Virus record (IMG/VR): IMGVR_UViG_3300033141_002656
Location: 1 to 53,845 of that record
Reading direction: 5' to 3' (one strand)
Length of the DNA stretch: 53,845 nt
DNA from: a virus
Taxonomy: Duplodnaviria > Caudoviricetes
Shown in pieces: positions 35,878-53,845 of this stretch; positions within the stretch are counted from its first letter, which is position 1, and each line of letters opens with the position of its first letter. The notes beneath the pieces are model-generated. The model had not been told where the DNA came from. It did no database searches and saw nothing but the letters and a program-made list of their open reading frames with translations. Made by a program: the position numbers and the translations under genes.

Positions 35878-36074
35878 TCGTCTGACATAGCCATGATTGC
35901 CTTTTGCTGGGCTGCCCTCTTGGCCTGGGCTTTTTCGATCGTCTTGCAATAGGGACACCTGACCTCAGTGATTCTGCCAGTGAACTTGTTGATGAGGGTA
36001 ATATACCCGTCAATGCATGAGCGATCATGCTCATACTTATCACGGGTATATTGGTTGAGTGTTTCCTGTTTCAC
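35874..36074 (-). CDS. Hypothetical protein with CxxC
   Basis: GTGA-coupled; CIDG...CPYC. Confidence 0.55.
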   Translation of the reverse strand: MKQETLNQYTRDKYEHDRSCIDGYITLINKFTGRITEVRCPYCKTIEKAQAKRAAQQKAIMAMSDD

Positions 36075-36703: not shown

Positions 36704-36706
36704 GGA

Positions 36707-37117
36707 TTACCTCTTTTTGGTTCGGGCCTTTTTCTTGCCGCGTTTGGAACCCATGGACTTGTCCGCCGGGGCCTCATCCATTTCTTTGGACTCTGGCTCA
36801 GGCTCTGGATCAGGGGCAGGCTCTGGATCAGTGGCAGGCTCGGGTTCAGGGTTGGGTGCCGATTCCGGGGCAGCTGCAATAGCTGCACCATCAGACTTGC
36901 CTCTGAGGACCTCATACCAGCCCCCTGACAGACGTTCCTTTTCCAGGTCTCTTACCTCAACCAGGAACGGTTTATATTGAACCTTGAGTCTCTGGACCAC
37001 CTCAGCTGCAACAATGATCTGGTTCCCGTTGTCCAGAAACAGACCAGCCTCAGCAATACTGAGGTTGGTGCCTTTGAGATTGGCCACCTCAAGCAGTACA
37101 CACTTTTTCATGTTCAT
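36707..37117 (-). CDS. Hypothetical protein with PE-rich linker
   Basis: Downstream of the capsid gene; GGGAG RBS. Confidence 0.7.
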   Translation of the reverse strand: MNMKKCVLLEVANLKGTNLSIAEAGLFLDNGNQIIVAAEVVQRLKVQYKPFLVEVRDLEKERLSGGWYEVLRGKSDGAAIAAAPESAPNPEPEPATDPEPAPDPEPEPESKEMDEAPADKSMGSKRGKKKARTKKR

Positions 37118-37128
37118 GACTCCCTGTT

Positions 37129-37160
37129 AAAAACCCCCGTCCCGTGGACGGGAACGGGGG
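37129..37160 (-). terminator. Intrinsic terminator after capsid gene
   Basis: CCCCCGTTCCCGT-CC-ACGGGACGGGGG followed by TTTTT. Confidence 0.75.
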
Positions 37161-37226
37161 CTATTGGTTTGGAGAAAACAAGCCGGAAACCGTCCAATCC
37201 TTAGACAGACAACAGCCTGTCAGGAT

Positions 37227-38618: not shown

Positions 38619-38685
38619 GTCTGAACCCTCACATGAATGTTTATAAAATTACCGTATGGAATACCGGTAGGCCCTGCCCACCCGG

Positions 38686-40032: not shown

Positions 40033-40084
40033 ACTCCCAGTGTGGTTGTTCGATAGTTCTCTTGGATAGTATATAAAATTTTTG

Positions 40085-42448: not shown

Positions 42449-42451
42449 GAC

Positions 42452-43927
42452 TCAATCCTCAAGCTCAATGATTGGGTCCTCTTCATCTGTGTCATCACCA
42501 TCAAAGAACCCATCATCATCTGTTTCTGACTCCATGGCCTCAGCATACAAGGCCAAGTCATCCCCTTTGATCTTATCATCTAATGCTTGTTCTAACATCT
42601 TTTCGGCAGCCTCGGCCATTGCTGATTGCATGGCATTGCTGATGGCTAGCATCCCAGCCATGACCACATCATCATGCTCACCATCCGGGGCCGAGTATTG
42701 GAACAGACCTGACTTGGTACTGTTCACCTCAAATGAGGCAAACTCATGCTCAATCTGTTCGATCCGTGGGGCCGAGTGCCAGCCCTGCTCAATGGCTATG
42801 TTGGTACGGGTGACCATCTGGGACTTGATCTTGTTGTTGAATGTCACGGCCTCAATGGTGGCATCAATGTCAAGCTCAGCCAGCAGATCACCAAAGGCGT
42901 CGCCCACACCCGTGGCATCATACCAGACCAGATTGTCTGATATGGGCTCACCCTTGGCATCCCTGACAATCTGGAAATATCGTTTGATGTACTGGGCAAA
43001 CCGCTCAGCCTGCCTGGGATATGGGAGTTTCCGGAACCGGCAATATCCCACCAGCTGACCCAGGCCATTAACAGAATAGAACACCGTGTAATCTTTGCGT
43101 TTGGCAATGTCAACACCGTGGTACACGTCCATCTGTCTGGCCTTGGGATCCGGATGGATCCAGAACCTGGTGACTCCAGCTGGTACCTCAAGGGCCTCAT
43201 CCCAGATCTTGCTGAGATCCCCGAACACCTCAGACTCACTGAGGAAAAGAGCAAGGTAATACTGCTCAAAGAGATGCTTTGGTAACAGACGTTTGGCCTG
43301 CTCAACGGCCTTGTCTGAGACATAGGGTGAGTCAGCTGTCTGCAGGTGGCCCCAGCAAAAGAACGGATCCCCCTGCTTGGCTTTGCGGAATATATCGTAA
43401 TACCAGGTATATCCTCTGGGTGTACCAGTGACGATCACCAGGCCCTCTGTCTGGGTCAAGGTGGTGTACAGGGAATACCAGACTTGCTTGCTGATCTTGC
43501 CGGCCTCATCGATGACAGCCCGGTCAATGTTCTCACCCTCAACGGTGGTCTCAGCATCCCGGCCATGCAGGAACTGAATGAATGACCCGTTGGCAAACCG
43601 TATCTCAAGCCGGCCATCCACTGGTTCAATCCATTCACAATCAGGTAACATAGCCTTGATGTATCGGTAACCGATCCGGCACTTGAGATAGGTGGGCGCC
43701 AACCAGACACAGTATGAGCCTGGATTCACCAGGGCCTCTTTGAGCAACCAGGCAGCTGAGCCAAAGGACTTGCCAGCCTTGGTTCCAGCTGGGCAAACCA
43801 GAGCCTGGGCATTGGGGTAACGTTCATTCCAATCCCAGAACAGTCTCTGCTTGGGATACATCTCTGGGAACCGGACCACCACCTGGTCAGGCATGATGGG
43901 ATTTGCCAGGGCCAGACCCAGGGCCAT
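42452..43927 (-). CDS. terL: Terminase large subunit (start uncertain: 43894, 43927 or 43975)
   Basis: AGTKAGKS, VIDEA, TGTPRG, GVDIA, DATGVG, HDDVVMA. Confidence 0.93.
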   Translation of the reverse strand: MALGLALANPIMPDQVVVRFPEMYPKQRLFWDWNERYPNAQALVCPAGTKAGKSFGSAAWLLKEALVNPGSYCVWLAPTYLKCRIGYRYIKAMLPDCEWIEPVDGRLEIRFANGSFIQFLHGRDAETTVEGENIDRAVIDEAGKISKQVWYSLYTTLTQTEGLVIVTGTPRGYTWYYDIFRKAKQGDPFFCWGHLQTADSPYVSDKAVEQAKRLLPKHLFEQYYLALFLSESEVFGDLSKIWDEALEVPAGVTRFWIHPDPKARQMDVYHGVDIAKRKDYTVFYSVNGLGQLVGYCRFRKLPYPRQAERFAQYIKRYFQIVRDAKGEPISDNLVWYDATGVGDAFGDLLAELDIDATIEAVTFNNKIKSQMVTRTNIAIEQGWHSAPRIEQIEHEFASFEVNSTKSGLFQYSAPDGEHDDVVMAGMLAISNAMQSAMAEAAEKMLEQALDDKIKGDDLALYAEAMESETDDDGFFDGDDTDEEDPIIELED

Positions 43928-44011
43928 GGACCCTGCCCCGGGAACCCAGTTACATAGCCATATGGCTAAGATCATTAGGGCAATGAGGACAATGCTGGTA
44001 AGGCAGTTACA

Positions 44012-44049
44012 TAAAAGGACACCCCCCAACAAGGCGTCTTGATGGGGGG
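44012..44049 (-). terminator. Hairpin/terminator upstream of terL
   Basis: CCCCCCATCAAG-ACGC-CTTGTTGGGGGG, then TGTCCTTTT. Confidence 0.5.
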
Positions 44050-44060
44050 CAGGGTTCGGA

Positions 44061-44534
44061 CTACATCGGTAGTTGAGCGGTATCCGTGGTGGGCTCATCG
44101 GATCCATCCTCATCAGTCTCAGGCTCAGTCTCTTTGTCTACCACCTTGAAACCGGGGATGTTGGGGCCATCACCAAACAGGCCCCGTTGCTTGAGGCCGG
44201 CAACCTCATACTCAGTGAGTTCTCTTTCCTCATAGCGTTCATCATTGTACAGGTACCAGGTCCTTTTGCTTTTGAGATCAAAGACCTGCTCACAGTCCAC
44301 TTGGCGGACCTCACGGCCAGTGACATGGGCTCTGGACAGTTTCAGGACCTCAGACTTTTTCTCTTTGATCTTGGCACCCCAATCCTTTTTGACCTCACGG
44401 TAGTCATCCTCAAGGGCATCCAGTTCCTTGAACCGGACCGCACAATCAGAGGCCCGGTCAGCCAGTTCTGATTCAGTCAGCTGCACGTGCAGGGACTGGG
44501 TGACATTGACAGTATCCAGCTTGGGTTCAGTCAT
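44061..44534 (-). CDS. Hypothetical coiled-coil protein
   Basis: MTEPKL start after GAGG; helical hairpin and acidic tail. Confidence 0.75.
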   Translation of the reverse strand: MTEPKLDTVNVTQSLHVQLTESELADRASDCAVRFKELDALEDDYREVKKDWGAKIKEKKSEVLKLSRAHVTGREVRQVDCEQVFDLKSKRTWYLYNDERYEERELTEYEVAGLKQRGLFGDGPNIPGFKVVDKETEPETDEDGSDEPTTDTAQLPM

Positions 44535-44688
44535 CCTCTTGTTCCTCAATATGGGGGCACCAATCGGGTACCTCGTTAACATCATCAATCTCTTGCTCGG
44601 TCTCGCCACAGATGGGATATGCCCCATCTCTGTCAATGAGCGGACAGTCTCTGCATCTGCTGATCTTGATCACTGCCAGCCTCACCAT
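44527..44688 (-). CDS. Small Cys-rich protein
   Basis: CRDCP...C...PDWCP; GGGGG RBS. Confidence 0.65.
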   Translation of the reverse strand: MVRLAVIKISRCRDCPLIDRDGAYPICGETEQEIDDVNEVPDWCPHIEEQEDD

Positions 44689-44816
44689 TCCCCCTTTTCC
44701 TTGGCCACCTTGCACTTTTCGCAGACCCATTTGCCATCCACGTTCCATTTCCGGTTGGTGGGGTTGTCCTTACCCACCAGATTGCAACCACACTTTGCAC
44801 ACTTCTGCTCACCCAT
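44682..44816 (-). CDS. 44-aa Zn-finger protein
   Basis: GAGG RBS; CAKC...CEKC; not in the ORF track. Confidence 0.65.
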   Translation of the reverse strand: MGEQKCAKCGCNLVGKDNPTNRKWNVDGKWVCEKCKVAKEKGEW

Positions 44817-44824
44817 GTCTCACC

Positions 44825-45094
44825 TCAATGTTGTGTTGCCTCTTTGTTCTCATCCGATATCTGTTTGACCCGATCTGGCCTGATCACGCTCACCTCAAAC
44901 TGACTGTTGAGTATGAGCAGATCAACTCCCGGGTAATGGCCTTTTGACTTGGCAGTCTCGAACATCTGGATGAGATGCCTGACTGCCCCACGATCAATGT
45001 TCTCCCCTGGTCTGATCAGGATACAGTCCCCCGGTTTCACAATGACCGTGTCCATGTCCAGGATGATCTTACGGCTGGGGTCCATCAGGACCAT
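44825..45094 (-). CDS. Hypothetical protein
   Basis: 89-aa ORF in the gene chain. Confidence 0.65.
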   Translation of the reverse strand: MVLMDPSRKIILDMDTVIVKPGDCILIRPGENIDRGAVRHLIQMFETAKSKGHYPGVDLLILNSQFEVSVIRPDRVKQISDENKEATQH

Positions 45095-45116
45095 CTGTCA
45101 CACCGCTTTGCGTTCC

Positions 45117-45299
45117 TCAATTGTCTTTTGGTTGATTTCCAATCTCAATTACTCCTGTTGCCTGTTTGACAAGTTCCAGTGCCTGCTCTGCATTCAGCCC
45201 TGTGGCTATCATTTCCCAGTCAGGAATATGCCTTGCATCACAGGTAGTTTCCCCGATGTATTCCTTGACACGATACTGGCCATTGGTACCCTGTTCCAT
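45117..45299 (-). CDS. Hypothetical protein
   Basis: MEQGTNG start after AGGA. Confidence 0.6.
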   Translation of the reverse strand: MEQGTNGQYRVKEYIGETTCDARHIPDWEMIATGLNAEQALELVKQATGVIEIGNQPKDN

Positions 45300-45303
45300 T
45301 TTC

Positions 45304-45561
45304 CTACGCCATATCAGTTTGTTCATCACCCATCCCCATTGCCGTTCTCATAGTCCTTGCCACCCCACCCTTGGTGGAGGGCTTGGCCACTTCAGCCTGT
45401 ACGTTCATCTCAGCCCTGAGTAATTCGATCTGGTTCTTGAGCTCGTCCACCTAGGCCCAGGTCGAGAACTTGGCAACTACCCAGCCCAGGCAGAACCCAA
45501 AGGCAGTCCAGCCTATGGTAATCACAATCATCACCTTGACCCCAACCATTGCTTCATCCAT
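45304..45561 (-). pseudogene. TM plus coiled-coil protein interrupted by in-frame TAG (45451-45453)
   Basis: MDEAM...LGWVVAKFSTWA*VDELKNQIELLRAEM...; the read-through frame ends 4 nt before the next ATG. Confidence 0.65.
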
Positions 45562-45563
45562 GT

Positions 45564-46400
45564 TTACAACCCCATCAATCTTTTAAACGCTTCGGACACT
45601 TGCGCGGGAACAACCGCATTGCCCAAGGCTTTAATTCTGTCCACCCGGAATGGTAGCCCATCAACCACTCGACCCACGTCGGGTTCAACAGCCCACCAGC
45701 GCGAGTCGGCGTAGTCCGCGGCAATTCTTTTTTTGACTCTAATAAAGCGACGTGGCTCAATGGTTGACTGCATTGTGGTGTGCTGTATTTCCTCTTTGCC
45801 GATTTCCAATCCCTGGCGGTTGGGATTGGTAACATGACTTGCGCACTTAATTTCGGTTCGCCGCGGCTGTTCCATTTTCCTTTCTCTCTCTCTACCGCAT
45901 CGTCTGCTATTGGCGTTTGCCAATAAAAACCATCTTTCCCTCTTGTGCGGCGCTCCCACATCGTAAGCGGATAGCATACCCCACCGACAATCATACCGCA
46001 GCGAGGCCATCTCCCGTGCAACAATGTGCAGGTATTTGCGTATTCCAGGGACGTTTTCAAGGAATATGAATGTGGGTCTGATTTCTTCGGCCAAGCGCAT
46101 GATCTCGAAAAAAAGCCCGCTTCGCTCCGCTTCCAAGCCTTTTCGAGTGCCCGCACAGCTGAGATCCTGGCACGGGAATCCGCCGTAGACAATGTCGATT
46201 TGTCCTCGAAAATCTGAGATTGGAAATGTTCTGATATCGTCCCAGATAGGTGCAGTGGGTAATTGTCCATCTGCCATGCGAGAGAGAAGAACGGCACGAG
46301 CATATTCGTCGATTTCACAGTAGGCGACCGGTCGGGCCCACTGCCCCAGGGCAAGGGAGATTCCGCCGATTCCGCTAAATAGGTCCAGGCCATTTAACAT
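45564..46400 (-). CDS. C5 DNA cytosine methyltransferase, alpha-like subunit
   Basis: Motifs I DLFSGIGG, IV GGFPCQD, VI LENV, VIII HKRERWF, X LGNAV; no in-frame motif IX. Confidence 0.93.
   Translation of the reverse strand: MLNGLDLFSGIGGISLALGQWARPVAYCEIDEYARAVLLSRMADGQLPTAPIWDDIRTFPISDFRGQIDIVYGGFPCQDLSCAGTRKGLEAERSGLFFEIMRLAEEIRPTFIFLENVPGIRKYLHIVAREMASLRYDCRWGMLSAYDVGAPHKRERWFLLANANSRRCGRERERKMEQPRRTEIKCASHVTNPNRQGLEIGKEEIQHTTMQSTIEPRRFIRVKKRIAADYADSRWWAVEPDVGRVVDGLPFRVDRIKALGNAVVPAQVSEAFKRLMGL
45575..46393 (-). CDS. Nested alternative-frame methyltransferase beta-like subunit
   Basis: 272 open codons inside the MTase; ends with motif-IX-like LNPTWVEWLMGYHSGWT. Confidence 0.75.
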   Translation of the reverse strand: MAWTYLAESAESPLPWGSGPDRSPTVKSTNMLVPFFSLAWQMDNYPLHLSGTISEHFQSQIFEDKSTLSTADSRARISAVRALEKAWKRSEAGFFSRSCAWPKKSDPHSYSLKTSLEYANTCTLLHGRWPRCGMIVGGVCYPLTMWERRTRGKDGFYWQTPIADDAVEREKGKWNSRGEPKLSAQVMLPIPTARDWKSAKRKYSTPQCSQPLSHVALLESKKELPRTTPTRAGGLLNPTWVEWLMGYHSGWTELKPWAMRLFPRKCPKRLKD

Positions 46401-46402
46401 CC

Positions 46403-47065
46403 TTACGATACCTTTCTCGGCCTTGCCCTCTTGAACTTACCCCGTTCACTCATCTCTACCACAAACACCGGACACAGAGGCTTGTCACTCGGGTCAGTTG
46501 GTGCAGAGTCTCTCGGATCCGGCAACCCTACGTTCTCAGTGGACATACCCAGTGCCAGCCTCTGGATCCTCTGAATGGTGGCAGCTGTCTCAGCCAATGC
46601 CCTCAGGTCTTTTGGTTCCAGGTTGCTGACAATCTTGTGTCTCCGCTGACCGGTCTCTGGGTCAAGGACCTGTTCCCTTTTGAATCCGTAATTGAGCAAT
46701 GATTCAATGTGGATCCTGATCTTGTTGGCCACCCGGTAATCATCCTTGGACTGAGTACATCTCCAATTGTTAACCAGAGACCAGAGTCTATTAACCTGGT
46801 CATCCTTGGGCAGATCACCCTCAAGTTCCCTAACATTGTGCAATGCTTGTGGCAGGGCCTTATCCCACCCATTGGTGTTCCGCCTGACAATGGCCCGTCT
46901 GAGGTCAAACCCTTTGGACCTGAGGAACGTGGCCTTGTCCTTACCCGATTCAATCCACTCTTTGAACAGCCCATCCCAGTCCACCTTGCCCTGACGGCAG
47001 GCTGCATCAGCGTCCAATCTCTTTTGCATCTGTGGTGTCAGTTTGCTCATTTGGTATTTTGCCAA
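46403..47065 (-). CDS. Possible terminase small subunit
   Basis: N-terminal HTH-like region, helical core (IQRLALG), short beta and basic tail; upstream of terL. Confidence 0.5.
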   Translation of the reverse strand: MAKYQMSKLTPQMQKRLDADAACRQGKVDWDGLFKEWIESGKDKATFLRSKGFDLRRAIVRRNTNGWDKALPQALHNVRELEGDLPKDDQVNRLWSLVNNWRCTQSKDDYRVANKIRIHIESLLNYGFKREQVLDPETGQRRHKIVSNLEPKDLRALAETAATIQRIQRLALGMSTENVGLPDPRDSAPTDPSDKPLCPVFVVEMSERGKFKRARPRKVS

Positions 47066-47129
47066 AAAGTGCTGGCTGTAAGTACCTGGGATTAGGATAC
47101 CAAAAATGTATTAAGTTGAACAGAATATG

Positions 47130-47432
47130 TCAATTGGTTTTCAGCTTGCTGATGAGTCCGTGGTAATATGCCATCTGGTGTTTATCGGCATAGGATGGGG
47201 GGCTCAGACGCCATTCCCTTGGGGGAACCCTCTTGGTATCGAACCAGTTTGAAACTGTCTTGGCGAGGCTGCCAGGGCCTCTGAGGACGTGATTGGGGAT
47301 GAGTCTATGGGTACCACCGATGTCCTCATGCAGCTGGTTGTGGGTATCAAAGATGAGGGCAATCCAATCCTGCTCTGCTGATCCCTCAGAATACAGCGGT
47401 TTGACTATGTACCTGTATCCTTGCCCCACCAT
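47130..47432 (-). CDS. Hypothetical protein
   Basis: MVGQGY start after GGAGG. Confidence 0.65.
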   Translation of the reverse strand: MVGQGYRYIVKPLYSEGSAEQDWIALIFDTHNQLHEDIGGTHRLIPNHVLRGPGSLAKTVSNWFDTKRVPPREWRLSPPSYADKHQMAYYHGLISKLKTN

Positions 47433-47596
47433 GGATTGCCTCCTTGTTTCCCTAATGATATTATCATGGCAAAAAACAAAAAGCTCATTAGGAAATGCAA
47501 AAAGAACCATAGGGGATCAGCCTGTTTCTCAAACACAGCCCAGCTGAATGTCAGAACCAGGACGCTGTTGAATATGGACAGGGATAGCAAAATCAT
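47405..47596 (-). CDS. Small two-TM membrane protein
   Basis: ATGA-coupled; two hydrophobic segments. Confidence 0.6.
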   Translation of the reverse strand: MILLSLSIFNSVLVLTFSWAVFEKQADPLWFFLHFLMSFLFFAMIISLGKQGGNPWWGKDTGT

Positions 47597-47814
47597 TGGG
47601 TGTCAACCTGATTGATTTTTTCCAGGGCTATGCATCGTTTGCACCACAGTTTTCCTGGGCGGTTTCTTGTCGGACGACAATTGCACGGCTGCGCCTCCAA
47701 CGCCTCCACGGCAATCCTGAGCCGGTCGTAGAGCCATGGGATGTCTCGCTTATCGCAATATCCATGCTTTTCAAGGCGCTCAATGATCTCCGCGATCCGG
47801 TCGAGTGCTTTCAT
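47593..47814 (-). CDS. Hypothetical protein with C-x-C...CxxC
   Basis: ATGA-coupled at both ends. Confidence 0.65.
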   Translation of the reverse strand: MKALDRIAEIIERLEKHGYCDKRDIPWLYDRLRIAVEALEAQPCNCRPTRNRPGKLWCKRCIALEKINQVDTQ

Positions 47815-48029
47815 TTTTCATACCCCGCACATGGGTCTTTTGTTTTGAACTTAAGTTGGTCTTGATGTAAGCGACCAGTGGCTGCATCATGAATCAAAGT
47901 TACACATGAAGCACAAATAAACTGTTTTTCGCGTAACTGCACACACCAGACATTGCCTTTTTGTTTGCAAAGAATGCACTCTGCTCCGCTCCACCAATGA
48001 TCCTTTTCATGCTTTGGCTTCTCAAACAT
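47811..48029 (-). CDS. Small Zn-finger protein (ClpX-ZBD-like pattern)
   Basis: CILC...FICASCV; begins MFEKPKHE inside the 50-bp repeat. Confidence 0.65.
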   Translation of the reverse strand: MFEKPKHEKDHWWSGAECILCKQKGNVWCVQLREKQFICASCVTLIHDAATGRLHQDQLKFKTKDPCAGYEK

Positions 48030-48055
48030 CACTCCCACTTCCCCATCGCGTCCAG
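48006..48055. repeat. 50-bp perfect direct repeat, copy 1
   Basis: TTCATGCTTTGGCTTCTCAAACATCACTCCCACTTCCCCATCGCGTCCAG, identical to 49203-49252. Confidence 0.95.
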
Positions 48056-48150
48056 ACTAGTATTGATTTTCTTCAGGGCTTTGCAGCATCGATAAACGCA
48101 TGCGCCTCTTGATCTCAAACGCTCTGCGTGTCATCACCGCGAAGATCCGT

Positions 48151-48546
48151 TCACTCCTTCTTTTTGCCGAATTGCAGATACTTGCATATTTCAAGGATTG
48201 TCCTGCCAACATCAGCCGCCGCCGTCAGTTCCTCGGGAGAGGGCACCTTCGCAGAATCCAGCTTCTCAAGCCGATTCAGCAAGACATCTGCGGCCTGTCT
48301 TGATAAGCCGCGACAATCCATATCGCTGCGATTTGATTTCGTGGATGCTTCGCTGCAGGTCTTTGATGACGCATCGATAGCGCAAGGCTTTTTTATTTTT
48401 TTGTTTGACCCATCTGACGGTTCGATATTTAGCTTTGAATCCTTCCTCATCTTTGCGTAAATACGCCCGTATTCCCGCTTGTAAGCATCTGAACCTTTGC
48501 GATATCCTGCTTGGGCCAACTCCGAAGCAATGGGCAATTTCGTCAT
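48151..48546 (-). CDS. Overlapping-frame hypothetical protein
   Basis: 131-aa ORF overlapping the sigma C-terminus by about 280 bp. Confidence 0.35.
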   Translation of the reverse strand: MTKLPIASELAQAGYRKGSDAYKREYGRIYAKMRKDSKLNIEPSDGSNKKIKKPCAIDASSKTCSEASTKSNRSDMDCRGLSRQAADVLLNRLEKLDSAKVPSPEELTAAADVGRTILEICKYLQFGKKKE

Positions 48547-48901
48547 TTTGCAATCCCCATTTGTATTTAAGTATTGCTATCATCCGATCGTCTCTGTTCT
48601 TTATATTTTCAAAAATGTCCAGATCAGTTTCCATTTTGGGAATAGTCACTGCAATGCGTTCTATATTTTGTGGTTCGCAGTATTTCAGTTGAATTCGGTC
48701 CTCATAAGAGATTTTACGAGAATCTCCCTTCGTTTGCCGGAGCCAATCAATATAAAGCTGTGCGAACGAACCGCTCGCTCCTTTCAATTTTTGGATGATG
48801 AACCAAGAAGCAAAATCCTCTTGGTCCTGGTAGTTACATTGCGGCCAGATCGAGGCATATGCCTTCGCTTTCCGCCAAAGAACCATTGCATCAGATCTCA
48901 T
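48266..48901 (-). CDS. Sigma-70-family (FliA/ECF-like) factor
   Basis: Region-2-like QEDF...YIDWLR; region-4 HTH DRMIAILKY..GL..DEIA..FGVGPSRISQ. Confidence 0.75.
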   Translation of the reverse strand: MRSDAMVLWRKAKAYASIWPQCNYQDQEDFASWFIIQKLKGASGSFAQLYIDWLRQTKGDSRKISYEDRIQLKYCEPQNIERIAVTIPKMETDLDIFENIKNRDDRMIAILKYKWGLQNDEIAHCFGVGPSRISQRFRCLQAGIRAYLRKDEEGFKAKYRTVRWVKQKNKKALRYRCVIKDLQRSIHEIKSQRYGLSRLIKTGRRCLAESA

Positions 48902-49226
48902 TTTCGGCCGTCTCCCGTATCATCCTCAGTCTTTCGCGTCCATACGTTTCGGCCTCGTCATTTTCAACGAGATAATGCAGATACGATTGTCCAAAGCAGT
49001 AGCAGATAACATCAGCGACATCGCTACACTTACGGTAGGGAAAGTGGATCATCACGTCGAGAAAGGAATCTGATACCTGTGCTATTCGACGAAGACGATC
49101 GAGTTCATCTATATTCCATGCGTCAAGATCTGCCCGGACGTAAATTCCGGGAAATAAGTCATTAACCATTGATTTTCTCCAATGCCCCATCGGCCCATCC
49201 GATTCATGCTTTGGCTTCTCAAACAT
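48891..49226 (-). CDS. Hypothetical protein
   Basis: Begins MFEKPKHE inside the 50-bp repeat; TGATG-coupled. Confidence 0.65.
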   Translation of the reverse strand: MFEKPKHESDGPMGHWRKSMVNDLFPGIYVRADLDAWNIDELDRLRRIAQVSDSFLDVMIHFPYRKCSDVADVICYCFGQSYLHYLVENDEAETYGRERLRMIRETAENEI

Positions 49227-49252
49227 CACTCCCACTTCCCCATCGCGTCCAG
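49203..49252. repeat. 50-bp perfect direct repeat, copy 2
   Basis: Identical to 48006-48055. Confidence 0.95.
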
Positions 49253-50005
49253 CACACGCACACGCTTACATCTTACTTTTGTGATATCTCTCCCATAGAC
49301 AACAAAGTCTTCTGGCATAACTTCGCACTTTAAAACCTTCCCTTTGTTGTATAAAAGCGCTTGCTGTTTCGTCGGAGACAGGTGCAAACCTCCGCCGCAT
49401 TGACGATCTTGGTCATCGTCCCAATCAGGACATTCGACGAGTCCAGAATATTTAATTTTCCCCGTATAATAATCGGTCATGTCGTCTTTTACAGTTTTAT
49501 AAAGAATGACTCCGCCATTTGGCCCACGATCTGTGTAGATTCCAAGAAAATCATCTTTGCTATGGACGTGCTTTGTCGTTTTAATGGCAATAACATCAGC
49601 GTGAGAATCAAACTGTTTTTTTGCATCTTGAAAAACAACGATCGCTTTATTGTGGGCAACGATCTTCCCATTTGATGTAAATATTCGACAAAATGAATTT
49701 CCCCAGGCCACAACGCTGGAATTTTCCCAGGCCACAACGCTGGAATTTTCCCTGGCCACAACGCTGGAATTTTCCAAGGCCACAACGCTGGAATTTTCCC
49801 TGGCCACAACGCTGGAATTTTCCCTGGCCACAACGCTGGAATTTCCCAAGGCCACAACGCTGGAATTTTCCCTGGCCACAACGCTGGAATTTTCATACTT
49901 CTTTCTAAGAATTATATTTTTCGCAAAGATACGAAGCTCAGTAGATTCATCGCTTTCTTTATAACTGTCAATATCATTTTGAGATTTGATTTCTATAACT
50001 TTCAT
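49226..50005 (-). CDS. Octapeptide-repeat (beta-solenoid) protein with C-terminal CGGGLH domain
   Basis: Eight NSSVVA(R/L/W)(E/G) repeats; LYK.V...Y..G, CGGGLHL, KVRCK. Confidence 0.8.
   Translation of the reverse strand: MKVIEIKSQNDIDSYKESDESTELRIFAKNIILRKKYENSSVVARENSSVVALGNSSVVARENSSVVARENSSVVALENSSVVARENSSVVAWENSSVVAWGNSFCRIFTSNGKIVAHNKAIVVFQDAKKQFDSHADVIAIKTTKHVHSKDDFLGIYTDRGPNGGVILYKTVKDDMTDYYTGKIKYSGLVECPDWDDDQDRQCGGGLHLSPTKQQALLYNKGKVLKCEVMPEDFVVYGRDITKVRCKRVRVLDAMGKWE
49695..49894. repeat. Coding tandem repeat, 8 x 24 bp
   Basis: GGCCACAACGCTGGAATTT at 49706 and every 24 bp through 49874. Confidence 0.95.
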
Positions 50006-50312
50006 TTTACTTCCTCCATTTTTGCATCCAGGTCGGCGAGGGCTTTGCGTAACGATTCCATTTCATCATTTCCGCCAAATAAATTAACCATCCGCGCCGC
50101 CTCCACCACGCGCATCATGGCATCTTCGCGGGGGCGGTGGTTCCATTGCCTGTCTGCCATACACCATTCACCAGCGCCGTACTGAGGCCCGAATACGCCA
50201 CAATCCAAACATCTCGCAGCGTCAATATCTGAGTAGACACCGTCATGTGTATAGTTTTTATCAATTTTTTATTGCTACCACAAAACGGGCACGGCTTCAG
50301 CTTGTCAGTCAC
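50002..50312 (-). pseudogene. Lar-family restriction-alleviation-like protein, frameshifted at an A6 run (50265-50270)
   Basis: LKPCPFCGS in one frame; CLDCG..GP...A..QWNHR in the -1 frame. Confidence 0.7.
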
Positions 50313-50560
50313 AACTCACCCCCTCTTACACCATTCATCCTCAATCTGGATCTGCTGGTATCAAAGGCAGCATTGACCACCTCACGGGCCCGTCTGATAG
50401 CGTTCTCATAAGCAGGCAGATGCCTGACAGCCTCCACCCCTCTGAGGACACTGATCATCTGGGCAACAGCCCGTGAGGGTGGATGGATGGACATACCCTG
50501 CAGAGTCTCAGGAACCACCTCAACCTCAAAGATCATCTTGGTTGTCTTTTGCTCAGTCAT
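50309..50560 (-). CDS. Hypothetical protein
   Basis: Coupled at both ends. Confidence 0.65.
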   Translation of the reverse strand: MTEQKTTKMIFEVEVVPETLQGMSIHPPSRAVAQMISVLRGVEAVRHLPAYENAIRRAREVVNAAFDTSRSRLRMNGVRGGEL

Positions 50561-50757
50561 CTCTTACCCGTCCTATCAAAATCCTCTGGCAGCCCATGGG
50601 GATCCACCAGGCATTCAATCATGGCTCTGTGTGGATTGTGCCACTTACAGGTCAGACCCTGGACAGCAACCCAGCCCATGACCCCAGAGATCAGGAACCA
50701 GCCCACTGAGCCACAGAATATCCAGATGATCAACATGGCTCTGATGATGTCATCCAT
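50557..50757 (-). CDS. Small membrane protein
   Basis: Hydrophobic N-terminal half. Confidence 0.6.
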   Translation of the reverse strand: MDDIIRAMLIIWIFCGSVGWFLISGVMGWVAVQGLTCKWHNPHRAMIECLVDPHGLPEDFDRTGKR

Positions 50758-51037
50758 TGTCTCTTGCCTCCGGTAAGCGTTTCTGATTCAATTTCTGATC
50801 TAGGTTCCAGGCCAGCCACCACCGATAAGCTGTCCAAATCTTTAACTTGCCACGGATCCCCACCTTGAACTGAATGGCACTTTGGTATGGCTTGATATCA
50901 AACACTGTGTTGCTGATCCAGATGGATAGCCCACTGGGCTTGTGACTGAACGTGTACTGGCCTGCCTGCCATTCCGTGGGATTGTTATAAATACAATCAC
51001 ATATGGTCTGCCAGTCCTGAATTGGCTGCCTATCCAT
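50750..51037 (-). CDS. Hypothetical Trp-rich protein
   Basis: GGAG RBS; 95 aa. Confidence 0.7.
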   Translation of the reverse strand: MDRQPIQDWQTICDCIYNNPTEWQAGQYTFSHKPSGLSIWISNTVFDIKPYQSAIQFKVGIRGKLKIWTAYRWWLAWNLDQKLNQKRLPEARDNG

Positions 51038-51056
51038 TCAATACTCCGCTCAGTTG

Positions 51057-51284
51057 TTACTCAGCCCAGTCCATCATCTCTGACCGTTGCTGTTTGCGGA
51101 CTTTGCCAATGGCCTGGTTGATCAGCCAATACTTGGCCCGGGGGCTGACCTTGCTTGTTAACAAAGCCTCTTTGATGAACCATGGTAGCCGGTTGTAATT
51201 GCGTTTGTTCTGGCGATACTCTGATGGCGTCCAGTTGTTGATCCGTTTCTTGTTCTGCATGAATCTGGCTGCACGTCCGTTCAT
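51057..51284 (-). CDS. Hypothetical basic protein
   Basis: ATGA-coupled. Confidence 0.65.
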   Translation of the reverse strand: MNGRAARFMQNKKRINNWTPSEYRQNKRNYNRLPWFIKEALLTSKVSPRAKYWLINQAIGKVRKQQRSEMMDWAE

Positions 51285-51523
51285 CTCAATGCCCCTCTGA
51301 ATACCCGGTCAAGTCCATTCACAACCCAGCCCCACTGACCGTTGACCACAACCTTTTTGAACGGAACCTGGGCCTGCCGTTCAGTTGTGGTCAACGGATG
51401 ATCAAACAAAGGCACAATATAGAACTCGCCAGGGAATGATCTAGGATTGGGCAGCCTCTCAGCTGCCCTGATGATCGATCTGGTTAGATCACTTCTGGAT
51501 TTTGGTTGCTGGTGTCTTTCCAT
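51281..51523 (-). CDS. Hypothetical protein
   Basis: MERHQQ start after AAGGA. Confidence 0.55.
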   Translation of the reverse strand: MERHQQPKSRSDLTRSIIRAAERLPNPRSFPGEFYIVPLFDHPLTTTERQAQVPFKKVVVNGQWGWVVNGLDRVFRGALR

Positions 51524-51845
51524 TAGTGATTTCCTTACACTTTTCACACACCACAGGTTCATCCATGGGCCTGCCATGGATGCATCGTCTGGTTGTTTCC
51601 GAGGTCCCATGGTGCAGGTTCCATTCTGTTGCAGCATCAACCACGTGGACATGATACCCACTTGTCTGATCACAGTTGGGGTTGCTGCACTCATACCGAT
51701 ATGCAGCAACCTGCTTGGGATCCACCAGCAATCTCGGTGTCCATTCCATGTTGCTCTGTTTCCAACAGTGCTTACACGCATACAATCTCATTGGCAGTAT
51801 TGGCATCTCAACCCCATTCAACCAGGCACTTGGCCCGTCTGTCAT
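51489..51845 (-). CDS. Zn-binding Lar-like protein
   Basis: CKHC...CSNPNC...AATEWN, then CIHG...CEKC. Confidence 0.6.
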   Translation of the reverse strand: MTDGPSAWLNGVEMPILPMRLYACKHCWKQSNMEWTPRLLVDPKQVAAYRYECSNPNCDQTSGYHVHVVDAATEWNLHHGTSETTRRCIHGRPMDEPVVCEKCKEITNGKTPATKIQK

Positions 51846-52014
51846 GCTTGAGGATAGTCCAGATGAATCTGTCTACCTCTCCAATATTGTCAAAAGAGAA
51901 CCGCCACTTTTTCCGGTCCCCTAGGAACACGGTAATATATATACGTTTTTCTATAACTCACCCCCTCTAAATAGATGTCAATGAATTAGACACCTATCTA
52001 TCGGGGGATTCACG

Positions 52015-52392
52015 TCAACCTTGAGTCTCAGCTGCAACCACCTGTTTTCCCTCACGACAATACAGCATCATTTCCTCAAGGTGATTGATTGCAGCTGGTC
52101 CCCACCCATTGGATGCCAGATACTCAGCCTGGTATTTCATCACCAGTTCATAGGGGTTCATACCCAGGCTGGCAAAATAGGACCGCTCACCACGGAGATG
52201 CAACTTACCATGTTCTGCATTGGAGAGGGGGATGGTGCAGTAGTCGCTTGGTTTCTGGCCCATGCCAGCCTGCATCCCAGACCGGATGTGATGAGCCACC
52301 ACCGTACCCTCAGACCCGGTCACACAACAGGGGTGTGACCGGATCCACTGCAGGTACTGCCTATCCCTTGGTGTTACTTTTTTGAGCATCAA
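52015..52392 (-). CDS. DUF968/HNH-like nuclease
   Basis: YLQWIRSHPCCVTG, AHHIR, KPSD..TIPLS..EH..LH. Confidence 0.8.
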   Translation of the reverse strand: MMLKKVTPRDRQYLQWIRSHPCCVTGSEGTVVAHHIRSGMQAGMGQKPSDYCTIPLSNAEHGKLHLRGERSYFASLGMNPYELVMKYQAEYLASNGWGPAAINHLEEMMLYCREGKQVVAAETQG

Positions 52393-52607
52393 TTCAATCC
52401 CATCTTTTTCATCAGGTCAATGGCTGTCCGCCCAGGCCCAGTATCATCCTGGTTCTGGACTTGGGTCTGAATTGCAGTTGTCATGATCACAGTGAATGCC
52501 TGCAACACACACTGATCCCAGCTGGCAATAACATTACCAGCTGCATATGCATCCTTGAGGCCCTTGGCCATCTGAACAATTGAATCTGCCAGTGTGATCT
52601 CAGTCAT
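52389..52607 (-). CDS. Hypothetical protein
   Basis: MTEITL start after GGGGAG. Confidence 0.65.
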   Translation of the reverse strand: MTEITLADSIVQMAKGLKDAYAAGNVIASWDQCVLQAFTVIMTTAIQTQVQNQDDTGPGRTAIDLMKKMGLN

Positions 52608-52626
52608 AATCTCCCCAGCTGGTTGA

Positions 52627-52753
52627 CCCTTACCCGGCAACTATGTTGGCATGGAACGTAATGGTTAAAGAAACTCTGCCGGGTAAGGGGGAACCGAATT
52701 AACAATGACCCACGTGTATCAATCGTGTATCAATTCTGTTCAACGCTATCAAT
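52627..52753. promoter_or_regulatory. 13-bp inverted repeat plus tandem TATCAAT array
   Basis: CCCTTACCCGGCA 52627-52639 / TGCCGGGTAAGGG 52677-52689; CGTGTATCAAT twice at 52713-52734; TATCAAT at 52747. Confidence 0.55.
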
Positions 52754-52776
52754 AGGATTCTGGATTGTCTAATGAT

Positions 52777-52986
52777 TCAGCCGGCACGTTCAAAGGAATC
52801 CAGCCAGCTGATCAGGATGGACCGATGCAGTTCTGCAGTCTCGGCCAGACCCAGCCTCATGGCTGCAAGCTCAAGTCTGGTCTTGAGTTCCTCAGGGACT
52901 TTGAGACCGATGTACCTGGTGTCATCCCTGTCTTTGCCCAGCGGTTTTCTGCCTGGGCTTTTCTTTTCTGGTAACCTTTTTGGCAA
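52777..52986 (-). CDS. Ribbon-helix-helix-like DNA-binding protein
   Basis: PGRKP...YIGLKVPEELKTRLELAA...AELHRSIL. Confidence 0.7.
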   Translation of the reverse strand: MPKRLPEKKSPGRKPLGKDRDDTRYIGLKVPEELKTRLELAAMRLGLAETAELHRSILISWLDSFERAG

Positions 52987-53284
52987 TGGTCAGTTCCTTA
53001 CGGGCCAACTTAGTTAGGAAAACATACATGAGTTCATGCACTTTTCTGGCATCAACCTGCCGTACCTTTTGAAACCTCATGTGGTTCTTGGCCCACCACA
53101 GATCAAAATACCCTGGCTTGAGAGCATCGATCTCAGAGAGCCCACACTGGACAATGTCCATGGCTGGGGTCTTGTCGATCGCTGAGAACACCCGCTTGTA
53201 TTTCAGATCCTTTGATGCCCAGTTGGTGAACGACAACATGAGCCCACGTGCAATTGTCTCATGTGCAACAGCTTGCTGTACCAT
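52922..53284 (-). CDS. Hypothetical protein downstream of the structured RNA
   Basis: MVQQAV start after GAGGGGAG. Confidence 0.65.
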   Translation of the reverse strand: MVQQAVAHETIARGLMLSFTNWASKDLKYKRVFSAIDKTPAMDIVQCGLSEIDALKPGYFDLWWAKNHMRFQKVRQVDARKVHELMYVFLTKLARKELTIAKKVTRKEKPRQKTAGQRQG

Positions 53285-53301
53285 CTCACTCCCCTCATTG
53301 A

Positions 53302-53441
53302 GTACCGAGGTCCAGGATCCAAACCGTTCCTGGCACCGTTCAGGACCCCATTCATGAACAACCAGCCTGGGCCTCAGCCCAGGACCGGACACCGGCATGT
53401 GTGGTGCCGGTCTCCAACCCCCACACAGGGTTCCCCGATAC
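53302..53441 (-). ncRNA. Putative structured RNA or leader (closing stem, five hairpins, kissing loop)
   Basis: Folded by hand; G-U pairs favour the minus strand; loops UGUGUGG and CCACACA are complementary. Confidence 0.7.
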
Positions 53442-53448
53442 GTTCAAC

Positions 53449-53477
53449 AAAATAACTAATTGTCTGTTATTTGACAA
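53449..53477 (-). promoter_or_regulatory. Sigma-70-type promoter for the structured RNA
   Basis: TTGTCA-N17-TATTTT; predicted start about 53441-53443. Confidence 0.6.
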
Positions 53478-53731
53478 GAGACAACGGCAGGACCTGTCCT
53501 TCAGTGGTGCTCCGATTCATCACAACATCCCGTCCACACTCATCAAACCTACGCTTGTCTTTGAAATAGACGAACCAGACGTGACGGGCTATGTGATCCA
53601 CTCCCTTTTCCCTGGTCTTTTCAACCTCAAGCCGGATGAAATCCCCTTGCCTGTTGAGGTTCAGGTAATTGTCTGCATCCTGCAGGAACTGGCTGTATCC
53701 CTTTTGATTCCCAGAGTTCACCACTTTGTCC
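53467..53731 (-). CDS. Primase-helicase, 3' end (SF4 helicase C-terminus)
   Basis: HVIVVWQPNK...QKGYSQFLQDADNYLNLNR...LEVEKTR resembles DnaB-family H2-H4 motifs; in frame with 1-2546. Confidence 0.9.
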
Positions 53732-53845
53732 CGGTCGATCTTGTTGGGCTGCCACACCACAATCACATGCACATCATTAGCCCTTGCCAGGTCAATCAGT
53801 TCAGCATAGGCATTGAGCTTTTCACCATGGTTGTCCCGGGTGATG
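53732..53845. repeat. Terminal direct repeat, copy 2
   Basis: Identical to 1-114. Confidence 0.97.

Follow-up and report, generated by a model that had tools for sequence, protein, structure and literature searches.

A probable leader RNA with two mutually complementary hairpin loops in a small clade of uncultured tailed phages

Structure and role are known for only a few phage non-coding RNAs, and it is rarer still for a natural RNA to have two loops complementary to each other. The put RNA of phage HK022 is a structured, cis-acting RNA made just past a phage promoter; it consists of two stem-loops in about 70 nt and is not known to have a closing stem or loop-loop pairing. The C4 RNA of phage P1 and the CI RNA of P4 are embedded in leaders, have paired ends and pair through their loops with sites on their own operon transcript. 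RNase P processes these RNAs of about 70-80 nt, which target sites in the leader or overlapping the ribosome binding site (RBS). In the lysine riboswitch a five-way junction is closed by P1 and the first two arms kiss over 6 bp; the RNA has a conserved ligand core, a long kinked P2 arm that sterically permits the kiss, and an expression platform. The pRNA of phi29 is a separate transcript, found in small protein-primed phages and located on the connector of the motor. It is phage-encoded, about 120-170 nt long and branched from a three-way junction, with paired 5' and 3' ends and two mutually complementary loops. In the account given by PMC4201828, pRNA multimerises through the complementary loops of adjacent molecules over 2-5 bp that differ among phages, so that in pRNA the pairing is intermolecular, with loop letters that vary among related phages and a complementarity that is kept. 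ROOL and GOLLD are encoded by phages or prophages and form homo-oligomers through kissing loops, with function unknown, and a covarying loop pairing of ROOL that was once read as tertiary proved to be quaternary, as PMC12286853 describes it. Both run to several hundred nucleotides and dozens of helices, and often lie near tRNA islands rather than in leaders.

The window analysed here is a whole 53,845-nt stretch of DNA from an uncultured tailed phage (IMG/VR record IMGVR_UViG_3300033141_002656). On its minus strand, between a primase-helicase gene and the gene for a 120-aa protein, lies an element that we read as belonging to a new, rare family of structured RNAs in a small clade of uncultured tailed phages, with five members in the collections searched. 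The minus-strand sequence matches exactly that on which the original prediction of a branched RNA was based. The features of the locus are the following.

53467 to 53845, minus strand: 3' part of the primase-helicase gene, which runs on from 2546 through a 114-nt terminal repeat
53472 to 53477, minus strand: -35-like box TTGTCA from a consensus scan, within the final primase-helicase codons
53449 to 53454, minus strand: -10-like hexamer TATTTT from a consensus scan, 17 nt past the -35-like box, weak, its sequence not conserved in relatives
53442 to 53448, minus strand: GTTGAAC, a small palindrome (GTTnAAC) between the -10-like hexamer and P1
53302 to 53441, minus strand: structured RNA element of 140 nt, P1 and H1 to H5, folded with RNAfold
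53433 to 53441, minus strand: 5' strand of P1, GUAUCGGGG, pairing with 53310-53302
53416 to 53432, minus strand: H1, AACCC-UGUGUGG-GGGUU, with loop 1 at 53427-53421
53387 to 53415, minus strand: H2, GGA-G-ACCGGCA-CCACACA-UGCCGGU-G-UCC, with loop 2 at 53404-53398, complementary to loop 1
53364 to 53386, minus strand: H3, CCUGGGC-UGAG-GCCCAGG with a 2-bp extension, folded with RNAfold
53336 to 53361, minus strand: H4, UUGUUCA-(12-nt loop UGAAUGGGGUCC)-UGAACGG, folded with RNAfold
53312 to 53333, minus strand: H5, CCAGGA-ACGGUUUGGA-UCCUGG, whose loop bears the conserved GGUUUGG
53302 to 53310, minus strand: 3' strand of P1, CCUCGGUAC, partner of the 5' strand
53289 to 53296, minus strand: Shine-Dalgarno-like sequence GAGGGGAG of the 120-aa gene, unpaired in the minimum free energy (MFE) structure of the element plus 40 nt
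52922 to 53284, minus strand: 120-aa gene, of a family without known function, ATG at 53284, the first gene past the element

Folding of 53441-53296 with RNAfold reproduced the pairing of the two ends and the hairpins that had been proposed, as a 9-bp end-to-end stem (including two G-U pairs) around five hairpins. The MFE was -71.6 kcal/mol, compared with -57.5 +/- 4.0 kcal/mol for shuffled sequences (z -3.49, with none of 200 shuffles as good), and the 140-nt core alone folds to the same structure. Loop 1 (UGUGUGG) and loop 2 (CCACACA), originally described as exact complements, are indeed Watson-Crick complementary at 7/7 positions. This is the best match among the 10 possible loop pairs, the runner-up extending over 3 nt, and the duplex energy is -9.4 kcal/mol. 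The element is present as a single copy in the genome and has a G+C content of 0.63, against 0.51 in the rest of the window. H3 was flagged as terminator-like by a scan, with a poor T-run (CTGGTTGTTC). The alternative GGGGUCC/GGACCUC pairing, put forward as a possible switch, can be read in the window, but conservation of it was not found, as far as examined.

A G+C-rich structured element between the primase-helicase stop codon and a homologue of the 120-aa gene is also present in four other uncultured phages (L003, L004, L007 and L009), in which the helicase C-terminus is 53-64% identical to that of the window. Across the five members the element is 113-159 nt long and in every case richer in G+C than the rest of its sequence (0.63, 0.58, 0.61, 0.64 and 0.53 vs 0.51, 0.50, 0.45, 0.48 and 0.44, respectively). 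The element sequences do not align among the five, and a MAFFT alignment of them was unusable for structure. P1, H1, H2 and H5 are nevertheless kept in L003, L004 and L007; in these three and in the window H1 abuts P1 with no unpaired bases, and the last hairpin loop carries GGUU(U/G)GG on stems that differ. A partner for this conserved H5 loop was sought, and no consistent site was found. We defined the architecture by three features: a closing helix over the whole element, four or more hairpins, and first and second loops that are Watson-Crick complementary over at least 5 nt. Four of the five MFE structures show it, and when each of the five elements was dinucleotide-shuffled 1000 times, no shuffle combined all three features. 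The exception is L009, where the segments corresponding to loop 1 and loop 2 form a plain hairpin in the MFE structure.

Homologues beside primase-helicase genes had been named in the original prediction as the place to look for loop-loop covariation, and there the architecture is kept and the pairing of loop 1 with loop 2 is maintained with differing letters: UGUGUGG/CCACACA, UGUCAG/CUGACA, CGGAU/AUCCG, AUGGA/UCCAU and ACAAGA/UCUUGU in the five elements. The segments start at nt 15, 15, 15, 10 and 16 for loop 1 and at nt 38, 38, 33, 36 and 39 for loop 2. In each of the four elements tested this pair is the best of all loop pairs, with p values against random loops of 3e-5, 3.6e-4, 9e-3 and 5e-3 (Fisher 2e-9), and a broader segment test against dinucleotide shuffles, which takes in all five elements, gave a Fisher p of 0.003. 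The folding z-score, also proposed as a check, supports the element in the window and is weak in the relatives, at -0.74 to -2.16: L003 -2.16 (3 of 200 shuffles as good), L009 -1.54 (17), L007 -1.35 (20) and L004 -0.74 (45). In all five, folding favours the sense strand over the antisense strand by 6-15 kcal/mol, and the helices contain four G-U pairs in the window, three in L003 and four each in L004 and L007; together these observations fit an RNA, or one DNA strand only.

A covariance model built from the window sequence alone ranked L007 first of 11 (E 0.15), L003 third and L004 ninth, on the correct strand and with the correct ends, and a model built from L007 placed the window first (E 0.023) and L003 second (E 0.06) of 8. 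L009 was missed by both models, and L004 was found only at E 5-6. In an alignment of three sequences that a model fitted to the structure, and in which H2 of L003 is wrongly assigned, 98.3% of 118 cells are paired and 28 of the 46 pairs change on both sides. None of 500 shuffles reached these values, and sliding the partner by 1-3 columns left 29-51% paired. An alignment made by hand, in which the helix boundaries are our choice, has compensatory changes in 31/31 columns and canonical pairs in 134/134 cells, by construction. The alignment produced by the window model mixes true and false rows and misplaces H2 and H3.

Upstream of the element, the proposed promoter TTGTCA-N17-TATTTT was found at 53477-53449 on the minus strand. 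The scan returned this one site in the region, where 1.1 are expected by chance, so the site alone is not significant and its weight stems from conservation in the relatives. Here the two halves of the proposal part. The -35 box is TTGACA in L003, L004, L007 and L009 (TTGTCA in the window) and lies 29-33 nt before P1 in 5/5 elements, a spacing that is kept whether the box sits inside the helicase gene or up to ~250 nt beyond it. The -10 hexamer is not conserved; at equal spacing the relatives read AGATTG, TTTAAC, TAAACG and AAAAAG, and the hexamers of the five elements are poor and mutually unlike. In L003 and L009 the -10 position is immediately preceded on its 5' side by TGT. The predicted transcription start likely lies within 53442..53448 or at 53441. 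GTTGAAC may be an operator or a start-site motif, and its position is occupied in the relatives by TTAAAC(A/G)ATAC or TTTAACAATAC. Since TTRAACRWTAC has 4 matches in the window with 3.3 expected, it is not a repeated phage promoter. Allowing one mismatch, TGTTNAACA has 48 matches with 27.5 expected, a pattern too loose for interpretation. A tandem 11-nt repeat and a GTTGAAC motif lie ~700 nt downstream of the element.

On the downstream side the element was said to end just before the RBS of a 120-aa gene followed by a ribbon-helix-helix (RHH) gene. This holds: 17 nt separate the 3' end of P1 (53302) from ATG 53284, and the next ORF after the 120-aa gene is RHH-like (Pfam RHH_10, E 0.0084, below the curated cut-off). 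The Shine-Dalgarno sequence is unpaired in the MFE structures of the window, L003 and L004. The 120-aa protein had no match in Pfam, PHROGs, a PDB profile search or the Atlas. An ORF at 52922-53398, overlapping part of the element, does exist, and translation of the element as the N-terminus of this ORF had been named as one outcome that would refute the RNA. All five homologous proteins start at a methionine aligned with 53284, which argues against this, and no peptide or reading frame is conserved across the five elements. Downstream the element stands in cis to ~45 kb of genes on the same strand (small genes, methyltransferase, terminase, portal, capsid and tape measure), and the phage encodes an ordinary large terminase and portal.

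A search of the whole window with Rfam 15 (4227 models) gave no match at the gathering threshold, in line with the original prediction, which had recognised no family. In the region 53150-53600 only seven sub-threshold matches were obtained at E up to 10, the best scoring 20 bits against a gathering value of 38, to a human lncRNA model on the opposite strand. Rfam at E up to 0.1 gave no matches in L003, L004, L007 and L009, and ARAGORN no tRNA or tmRNA genes in these four or in the window. Against cultured-phage records there was no match to 52700-53845 by blastn or to the 120-aa protein and helicase C-terminus by tblastn. Two protein-alignment scans of bacterial and archaeal genomes likewise found no relative, and thus neither a prophage copy nor a clue to the host. 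Scanning viral contigs for TTGACA-N22-24-TTAAACRATAC returned 66 loci, about our chance estimate, of which a single one, L050 (the contig of L003), contains the element; run with default filters, the L007 model gave no match in these 66 loci and missed the known L050 copy too, so that result has little weight. PMC10690425, which lists candidate structured RNAs from IMG/VR, mentions in its main text no motif that follows a helicase gene. Over the following 1000 nt, extra full-length copies of loop 1 or loop 2 do not exceed expectation. A role as CsrA/RsmA sponge was considered and is not supported: GGA occurs 5, 8, 3, 4 and 5 times in the five elements, where shuffles average 3.1, 4.5, 2.6, 3.2 and 3.4, with nominal enrichment in L003 only (97 of 2000 shuffles as high).

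Of the described systems, the SRP Alu domain and the loop pairing of pRNA had been named as similar. For the SRP Alu domain the Rfam scan gave no match; for pRNA the likeness holds as a shared principle, not as membership. Like pRNA, the element is phage-encoded, branched and of comparable length, with paired ends and two complementary loops whose letters vary among related phages. These are likenesses of principle only; there is no model match and no three-way junction. The element instead has a five- or six-way junction, kisses of 5-7 bp rather than 2-5 bp, and the position of an mRNA leader. With ROOL and GOLLD it shares phage origin, but it is far from their several hundred nucleotides and is without an Rfam match.

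We consider it very likely that the element is a real structured RNA, and probable that it is a promoter-proximal leader of the operon of the 120-aa gene. More tentatively, and with slightly less than even confidence, we suggest that it acts in cis as a 5'-terminal leader domain. In this proposal transcription would begin at or near P1, giving a predicted 5' end there, from a host promoter of sigma-70 type (TTGACA, N17, weak -10) located where the primase-helicase gene ends. The first 113-159 nt of the transcript would fold into a closed domain, with P1 sealing the 5' end and four or five hairpins leaving the junction. Pairing of about nt 15-21 (H1 loop) with about nt 38-44 (H2 loop) would be maintained as the core structural lock, the last hairpin would present the G/U-rich loop GGUU(U/G)GG, and the Shine-Dalgarno sequence of the 120-aa gene, 6-20 nt past the domain, would remain free. 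The domain may then set the fate of the operon mRNA, conceivably by protecting the 5' end, by serving a protein or the ribosome as a docking platform, or both.

It is possible, though we think it on the unlikely side, that loop 1 and loop 2 pair reciprocally between copies to give a closed dimer or ring. The element would then be a self-associating and perhaps released RNA whose function resides in the assembly rather than in an mRNA leader; the assembly might serve, for instance, as scaffold or decoy for some factor of host or phage. H1 has only 5 bp and no linker to P1 in 4/4 elements, H1 and H2 are connected by 0-6 nt, and 0-5 loop bases are left over. From A-form geometry we infer that the rod formed by H1, a 5-7 bp kiss and H2, 16-23 bp long, could not be closed intramolecularly by such linkers, and in a symmetric dimer the two rods are equal in length by construction. 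Pairing between two copies is therefore a live option, because adjacent short arms strain a 5-7 bp intramolecular kiss. Both RNA ends are paired, as in stable RNAs, the linker past P1 is A/U-rich in 5/5 elements, and there are precedents in the pRNA multimers and the quaternary loop pairing of ROOL, as described in PMC4201828 and PMC12286853. However, the element has no terminator or known processing site at its 3' end and runs directly into the RBS. In L009 these segments can form a local hairpin, which shows that in this member at least the pairing can be intramolecular. The steric argument is also qualitative, and little energy is gained from the kiss in L004 and L007 (-4.6 to -5.7 kcal/mol). 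At slightly longer odds, two or more 140-nt leader domains might clasp by reciprocal kisses into an RNA-only dimer or ring displaying the GGUU(U/G)GG loops. Such a particle might arise as replication genes give way to those leading into packaging, and could by analogy be a miniature, independent counterpart of the pRNA and ROOL/GOLLD assemblies.

The remaining explanations fare worse. Processive antitermination in the manner of HK022 put, in which the nascent leader binds its own RNA polymerase so that it passes the operon terminators, would suit an RNA that is promoter-proximal, at a fixed promoter spacing and in cis to ~45 kb of genes on one strand. We think it improbable, as terminator-like sites (24 vs 18.4 +/- 4.2 by chance in 33900-53845, both strands) are not above chance and there is no evident resemblance to put RNAs in sequence. 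A leader-derived antisense regulator resembling P1 C4 or P4 CI, cut out and pairing by a loop with an operon site while loop 1 mimics or competes with that site, is if anything a little less probable. Its best support is where the downstream ORF has its top partner for loop 2: nt 138 for the window (-10.8 kcal/mol, rank 1) and nt 145 for L004 (-9.1, rank 1), with one at nt 134 for L003 (-4.9, rank 2), so that in 3/5 elements the sites fall within ~20 nt (nt 134-154); an RHH gene also follows, as in phage immunity operons. These three sites fall in different alignment columns and far from the RBS, a coincidence whose chance we roughly estimate at a few percent, and in L007 and L009 no such site is among the top three. 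In contrast to C4 and CI, the sole consistent complement of loop 2 is loop 1, and Rfam, which includes C4, gave no match. A functionless spacer, rich in G, whose fold stems from its composition and whose complementarity arose by chance also seems quite unlikely: for three of the four relatives, shuffled sequences come close to the native folding energy, and the family is tiny, but the loop pairing is kept with five different sequences at the same positions, which above all argues against it, together with the architecture and covariance-model tests. We hold a metabolite- or ion-sensing riboswitch to be very unlikely. The multi-way junction closed by P1, the kiss of the first two arms and the 5' UTR position do recall the L2-L3 kiss of the lysine riboswitch, but no conserved core or kinked arm is seen in the element, its junction strands span 0-7 nt and differ in both sequence and length among the four clear members, there is no expression platform (no terminator, and a Shine-Dalgarno sequence free in the MFE structure), no Rfam riboswitch matches, and the downstream genes are non-metabolic. 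We give least credence to an element that works as DNA, be it an origin of replication, a signal at which the neighbouring primase-helicase initiates on a single strand, or a site for packaging. The position directly past the primase-helicase gene and the tandem repeat and GTTGAAC motif further downstream would agree with it; the element is, however, G+C-rich rather than A+T-rich and has no iterons inside, its helix G-U pairs become A-C mismatches on the other strand, and the sense strand folds better throughout.

If the element acts in cis as a leader domain, it would be a new type of leader controlling entry to the middle or late genes in a phage clade seen only in metagenomes. Should it instead self-associate, no natural RNA-only quaternary assembly of the ROOL/GOLLD sort would be smaller, and RNA nanotechnology would gain a compact building block. 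At 113-159 nt it suits direct biophysics, with a loop-swap prediction built in and five natural versions that serve as ready compensatory mutants. Against this stands the great rarity of the family (5 elements in the collections searched). Four further relatives (L002, L010, L015 and L016) carry the same gene family with the element absent, so the element is dispensable for the operon as such. In L015, TTGACA-N15-TATAAG lies directly 5' of the gene of the 120-aa family, with no element between, and the gene therefore heads a transcription unit there too.

The minus-strand sequence of the element is exactly as the original prediction gave it, and RNAfold reproduced the proposed end-to-end pairing, with a 9-bp closing stem (P1) and five hairpins (H1 to H5). 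The fold has an energy of -71.6 kcal/mol, compared with -57.5 ± 4.0 kcal/mol for 200 dinucleotide shuffles (z -3.49), none of which was as good. As had been claimed, the loops of H1 and H2 (loop 1 and loop 2) are perfect 7-nt complements, and every other loop pair in the molecule reaches 3 nt at most. The element is present in a single copy in the genome and has a G+C content of 0.63, compared with 0.51 elsewhere in the window. No Rfam model matches it, locally even at an E-value of 10, in line with the earlier failure to recognise a family, and none matches the related loci described below. No tRNA-like gene was called in the window or at those loci.

The window comprises an entire IMG/VR virus record (53,845 nt), and its first 114 nt are identical to its last 114 nt (1-114 and 53732-53845, an exact terminal direct repeat), so the sequence closes on itself. 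Since the primase-helicase gene crosses the junction, the repeat probably arose as an overlap in the assembly of a genome that is circular or permuted. The long ORFs all lie on the minus strand, and from its gene content this is a siphovirus-like phage. In reading order the features are:

Minus strand, first in reading order: exonuclease, AAA-domain protein and helicase
2546 across the junction to 53467, minus strand: primase-helicase, with Toprim and zinc-ribbon matches
53302-53441, minus strand: the 140-nt element, after the primase-helicase and before the 120-aa gene
52922-53284, minus strand: the 120-aa gene, downstream of the element and followed by an RHH-like gene
Minus strand, after the RHH-like gene: small ORFs, including an HNH/DUF968 protein
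Minus strand, after the small ORFs: DNA methyltransferase
Minus strand, last in reading order: large terminase, portal, capsid-protease and tape-measure protein

The element has replication genes on one side and genes leading into packaging on the other. Pattern scans that took the helicase C-terminus and the 120-aa family as seeds revealed few relatives, all uncultured, and none was found in cultured-phage records or in one genome per prokaryote species. Four related loci (L003, L004, L007 and L009) show 53-64% identity to the window in the helicase C-terminus and carry 113-159 nt of G+C-rich sequence in the interval that separates the helicase stop from the 120-aa homologue. The L003 contig is also L008, L011, L018 and L050, and that of L004 is also L012 and L017. 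The remoter relatives are L002, L010, L013, L015 and L016; without the element, L002 has a 54-aa ORF at the site, L010 has its 120-aa-family gene almost directly after the helicase, and in L015 a good promoter, TTGACA-N15-TATAAG, immediately precedes the gene.

The five element sequences could not be aligned with MAFFT, yet their independently computed minimum free energy (MFE) structures resemble one another. Four of them (window, L003, L004 and L007) have a stem that joins the first and last bases; in these a 5-bp H1 abuts P1 with no unpaired nucleotide, H2 follows 0-6 nt after H1, and one to three further arms precede the last hairpin, H5. A closing helix spanning 90% or more of the length, four or more hairpins and 5 nt or more of loop 1/loop 2 complementarity, all set beforehand, occurred together in four of the five real elements and in none of 1000 dinucleotide shuffles of each, a comparison in which the closing-helix measure is favoured by our choice of element boundaries. 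The loop measure alone was reached by 1-6 of 1000 shuffles. The exception is L009, whose MFE structure pairs both complementary segments as an ordinary hairpin; its family-like fold costs 3.9 kcal/mol more.

Covariation between the loops, the proposed check on the prediction, is what the homologues display, as complementarity is kept with different letters. The pairs are UGUGUGG/CCACACA in the window, UGUCAG/CUGACA in L003, CGGAU/AUCCG in L004, AUGGA/UCCAU in L007 and ACAAGA/UCUUGU in L009, all Watson-Crick, and the segments start at nt 15, 15, 15, 10 and 16 and at nt 38, 38, 33, 36 and 39 from the start of P1. In each of the four clear members this is the best loop pair, with p values of 3e-5, 3.6e-4, 9e-3 and 5e-3 against random loops of the same composition (Fisher 2e-9). 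A hairpin-blind test of 18-nt against 21-nt segments with dinucleotide shuffles, covering all five, gave a Fisher p of 0.003. When P1, H1, H2, H5 and the loop-loop pairing were aligned by hand, both sides changed in 31/31 columns with at least three sequences and 134/134 cells were canonical, values that are descriptive only, the helices having been picked by us.

Covariance models built from single sequences offer a more objective line of evidence. A covariance model built from the window only gave 11 hits in 40.9 kb, with L007 first (E 0.15), L003 third and L004 ninth, all three with the right strand and ends. The model built from L007 only gave eight, with the window first (E 0.023), L003 second (E 0.06) and L004 fourth (E 4.7). 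L009 was missed by both. In a three-sequence alignment made by the L007 model, which is structure-fitted and mis-assigns H2 of L003, 98.3% of 118 cells were paired and both sides had changed in 28 of 46 pairs; none of 500 shuffles attained any of five measures, and sliding the 3' partner by 1-3 columns reduced pairing to 29-51%.

The sense strand folds better than the antisense in all five elements (-70.4 against -58.8 kcal/mol in the window, -61.6/-46.9 in L007, -44.9/-33.2 in L004, -42.7/-36.9 in L009 and -66.1/-58.1 in L003), and the three to four G-U pairs per member are consistent with this advantage. By folding energy alone the relatives' elements would not stand out (z -2.16, -1.54, -1.35 and -0.74), because shuffled versions of sequences so rich in G (32-38%) fold well too. 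Within the RNA itself, sequence is conserved only in the loop of the final hairpin, which reads ACGGUUUGGA, GAGGUUGGG, AUCGGUUGGGG and GGUUUGGA although each copy has a different stem; the counterpart in L009 is CGAGGUAAC. No consistent pairing partner for this loop was found. An analogue of the alternative-pairing switch also proposed for the window was seen in L007 only among the relatives. The 7-mer ACGGGGU occurs twice in that element (nt 96 and 113), in H4 and as the 5' strand of H5, so the 3' strand of H5 could pair with either copy.

The predicted TTGTCA-N17-TATTTT promoter was recovered by scan, although one such site is the chance expectation there, and its upstream box is kept in the relatives. 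TTGACA (TTGTCA in the window) lies 29-33 nt ahead of P1 in all five elements. In three of them (window, L003 and L004) it falls among the final codons of the helicase, and in the others ~110 nt (L007) or ~250 nt (L009) past the helicase stop, so the box keeps its place relative to the RNA rather than to the gene. As -10 boxes, the hexamers found 17 nt further on are poor (TATTTT, AGATTG, TTTAAC, TAAACG and AAAAAG), with TGT ahead of the hexamer in L003 and L009. P1 starts 6-10 nt after them, and from this spacing the transcript 5' end should fall at or within ~3 nt of P1. A small palindrome, GTTnAAC, lies between the -10 box and P1, in the relatives as part of TTAAAC(A/G)ATAC; it is not a recurrent motif of the genome and may bind a protein. 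In L007, the interval from the helicase stop to TTGACA includes a stretch (~2382-2425) that reads like a tRNA T-arm, 3' acceptor strand and CCA end; ARAGORN called no tRNA there, and it could be an attachment-site remnant or minihelix. The same interval in L009 (2364-2610) holds ~250 nt that look non-coding and are partly G+C-rich.

Translation of the region as the N-terminus of ORF 52922-53398, which the prediction had named as a reading against it, would run through the 3' half of the element. The homologues of the 120-aa protein in L002, L003, L004, L007 and L009 all start at a Met aligned with ATG 53284, and three-frame translations of the five elements have nothing in common, with different open frames in each; the element is therefore not translated in this way. 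The 3' end of P1 lies 17, 17, 14, 25 and 19 nt from the start codon across the five, and the linker is A/U-rich, followed by a G-rich Shine-Dalgarno sequence that is unpaired in the MFE structure of the element plus 40 nt (window, L003 and L004).

Taken together, the results make it very probable that the element is a genuine structured RNA, from a new and rare family marked by covarying loop-loop pairing, and chance is a very unlikely explanation. Its likeness to pRNA, ROOL/GOLLD, put, the lysine riboswitch or C4/CI is one of principle only; neither the family model and three-way junction of pRNA nor the family model and conserved junction core of the lysine riboswitch was found here. The text of a catalogue of more than 10,000 IMG/VR candidate structured RNAs names nothing alike, while its supplementary lists may number the motif (PMC10690425). 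Known from five metagenomic phages only, this is a clean, small and testable RNA of unusual self-complementary design. The observations fit a folded domain standing at the very 5' end of an operon transcript, and we tentatively favour, at a little under an even chance, a cis-acting leader. A 5' end sealed by P1 would be shielded from 5'-end-dependent decay, which would account for the constant distance from promoter to P1, and a protein or the ribosome would bind the exposed H5 loop.

The main rival, somewhat unlikely in our view, is that the loops pair between molecules in a reciprocal dimer. H1 is only 5 bp and stacked on P1, H2 is its immediate neighbour and the loops have almost no spare bases, so a 16-23 bp rod of H1, loop pairing and H2 could hardly close within one molecule, whereas a reciprocal dimer would close strain-free. 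pRNA likewise pairs loops between molecules (PMC4201828), and in ROOL a covarying loop pairing first read as tertiary proved quaternary (PMC12286853). Against this, the same segments can pair locally in L009 and no 3' end belonging to the RNA itself is evident. No terminator was found by scan directly after the element, and terminator-like sites in the next 20 kb downstream were not above chance; antitermination we regard as improbable. An antisense role like that of C4/CI is slightly more doubtful still, its sole support being a marginal match of loop 2 to nt 134-154 of the downstream ORF in three of five; the best complement in the 120-aa gene lies at 53147-53138 (minus strand, codons 46-49) in the window and at nt 134-154 in L003 and L004. 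A riboswitch is highly improbable, with unconserved junctions and no expression platform, and a site acting at the DNA level is the least probable reading.

Further downstream, the 120-aa gene shares ~65-95 nt with the RHH ORF, which is read in another frame (52922-52986 in the window, 3378-3472 in L003 and 3310-3380 in L004), so the basic tail that ends the 120-aa protein may mark a recoding site or be a by-product; in L002 the two genes abut (ATGA). In the intergenic stretch after the RHH gene (52713-52745), an 11-nt unit, CGTGTATCAAT (plus strand), is repeated exactly in tandem, and a third copy is degenerate. These copies adjoin a GTTGAAC motif resembling the one at the RNA start and may be an operator or iteron cluster. 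A 19-nt inverted repeat (52621-52639/52677-52695), whose arms lie 37 nt apart and are 89% complementary, extends over the start of an 83-aa gene at 52640; it could be a terminator or another structured leader.

The primase-helicase contains an inserted intein with a LAGLIDADG homing endonuclease (window 3-2546, minus strand, ORF residues ~384-681), matching Hom_end_hint (E 3e-11), Hom_end homing endonuclease (E 4.2e-9) and LAGLIDADG_3 in Pfam; the homologues in L002, L003 and L004 (588-598 aa) are without it. ORF 49226-50005, whose protein matches RIIB-annotated PHROGs in its C-terminal part, includes at least eight copies of a 24-nt tandem repeat (49671-49934) encoding ENSSVVAR-like octapeptide repeats. 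A 56-nt stretch at 49197-49252 is found again, 96% identical, at 48000-48055.
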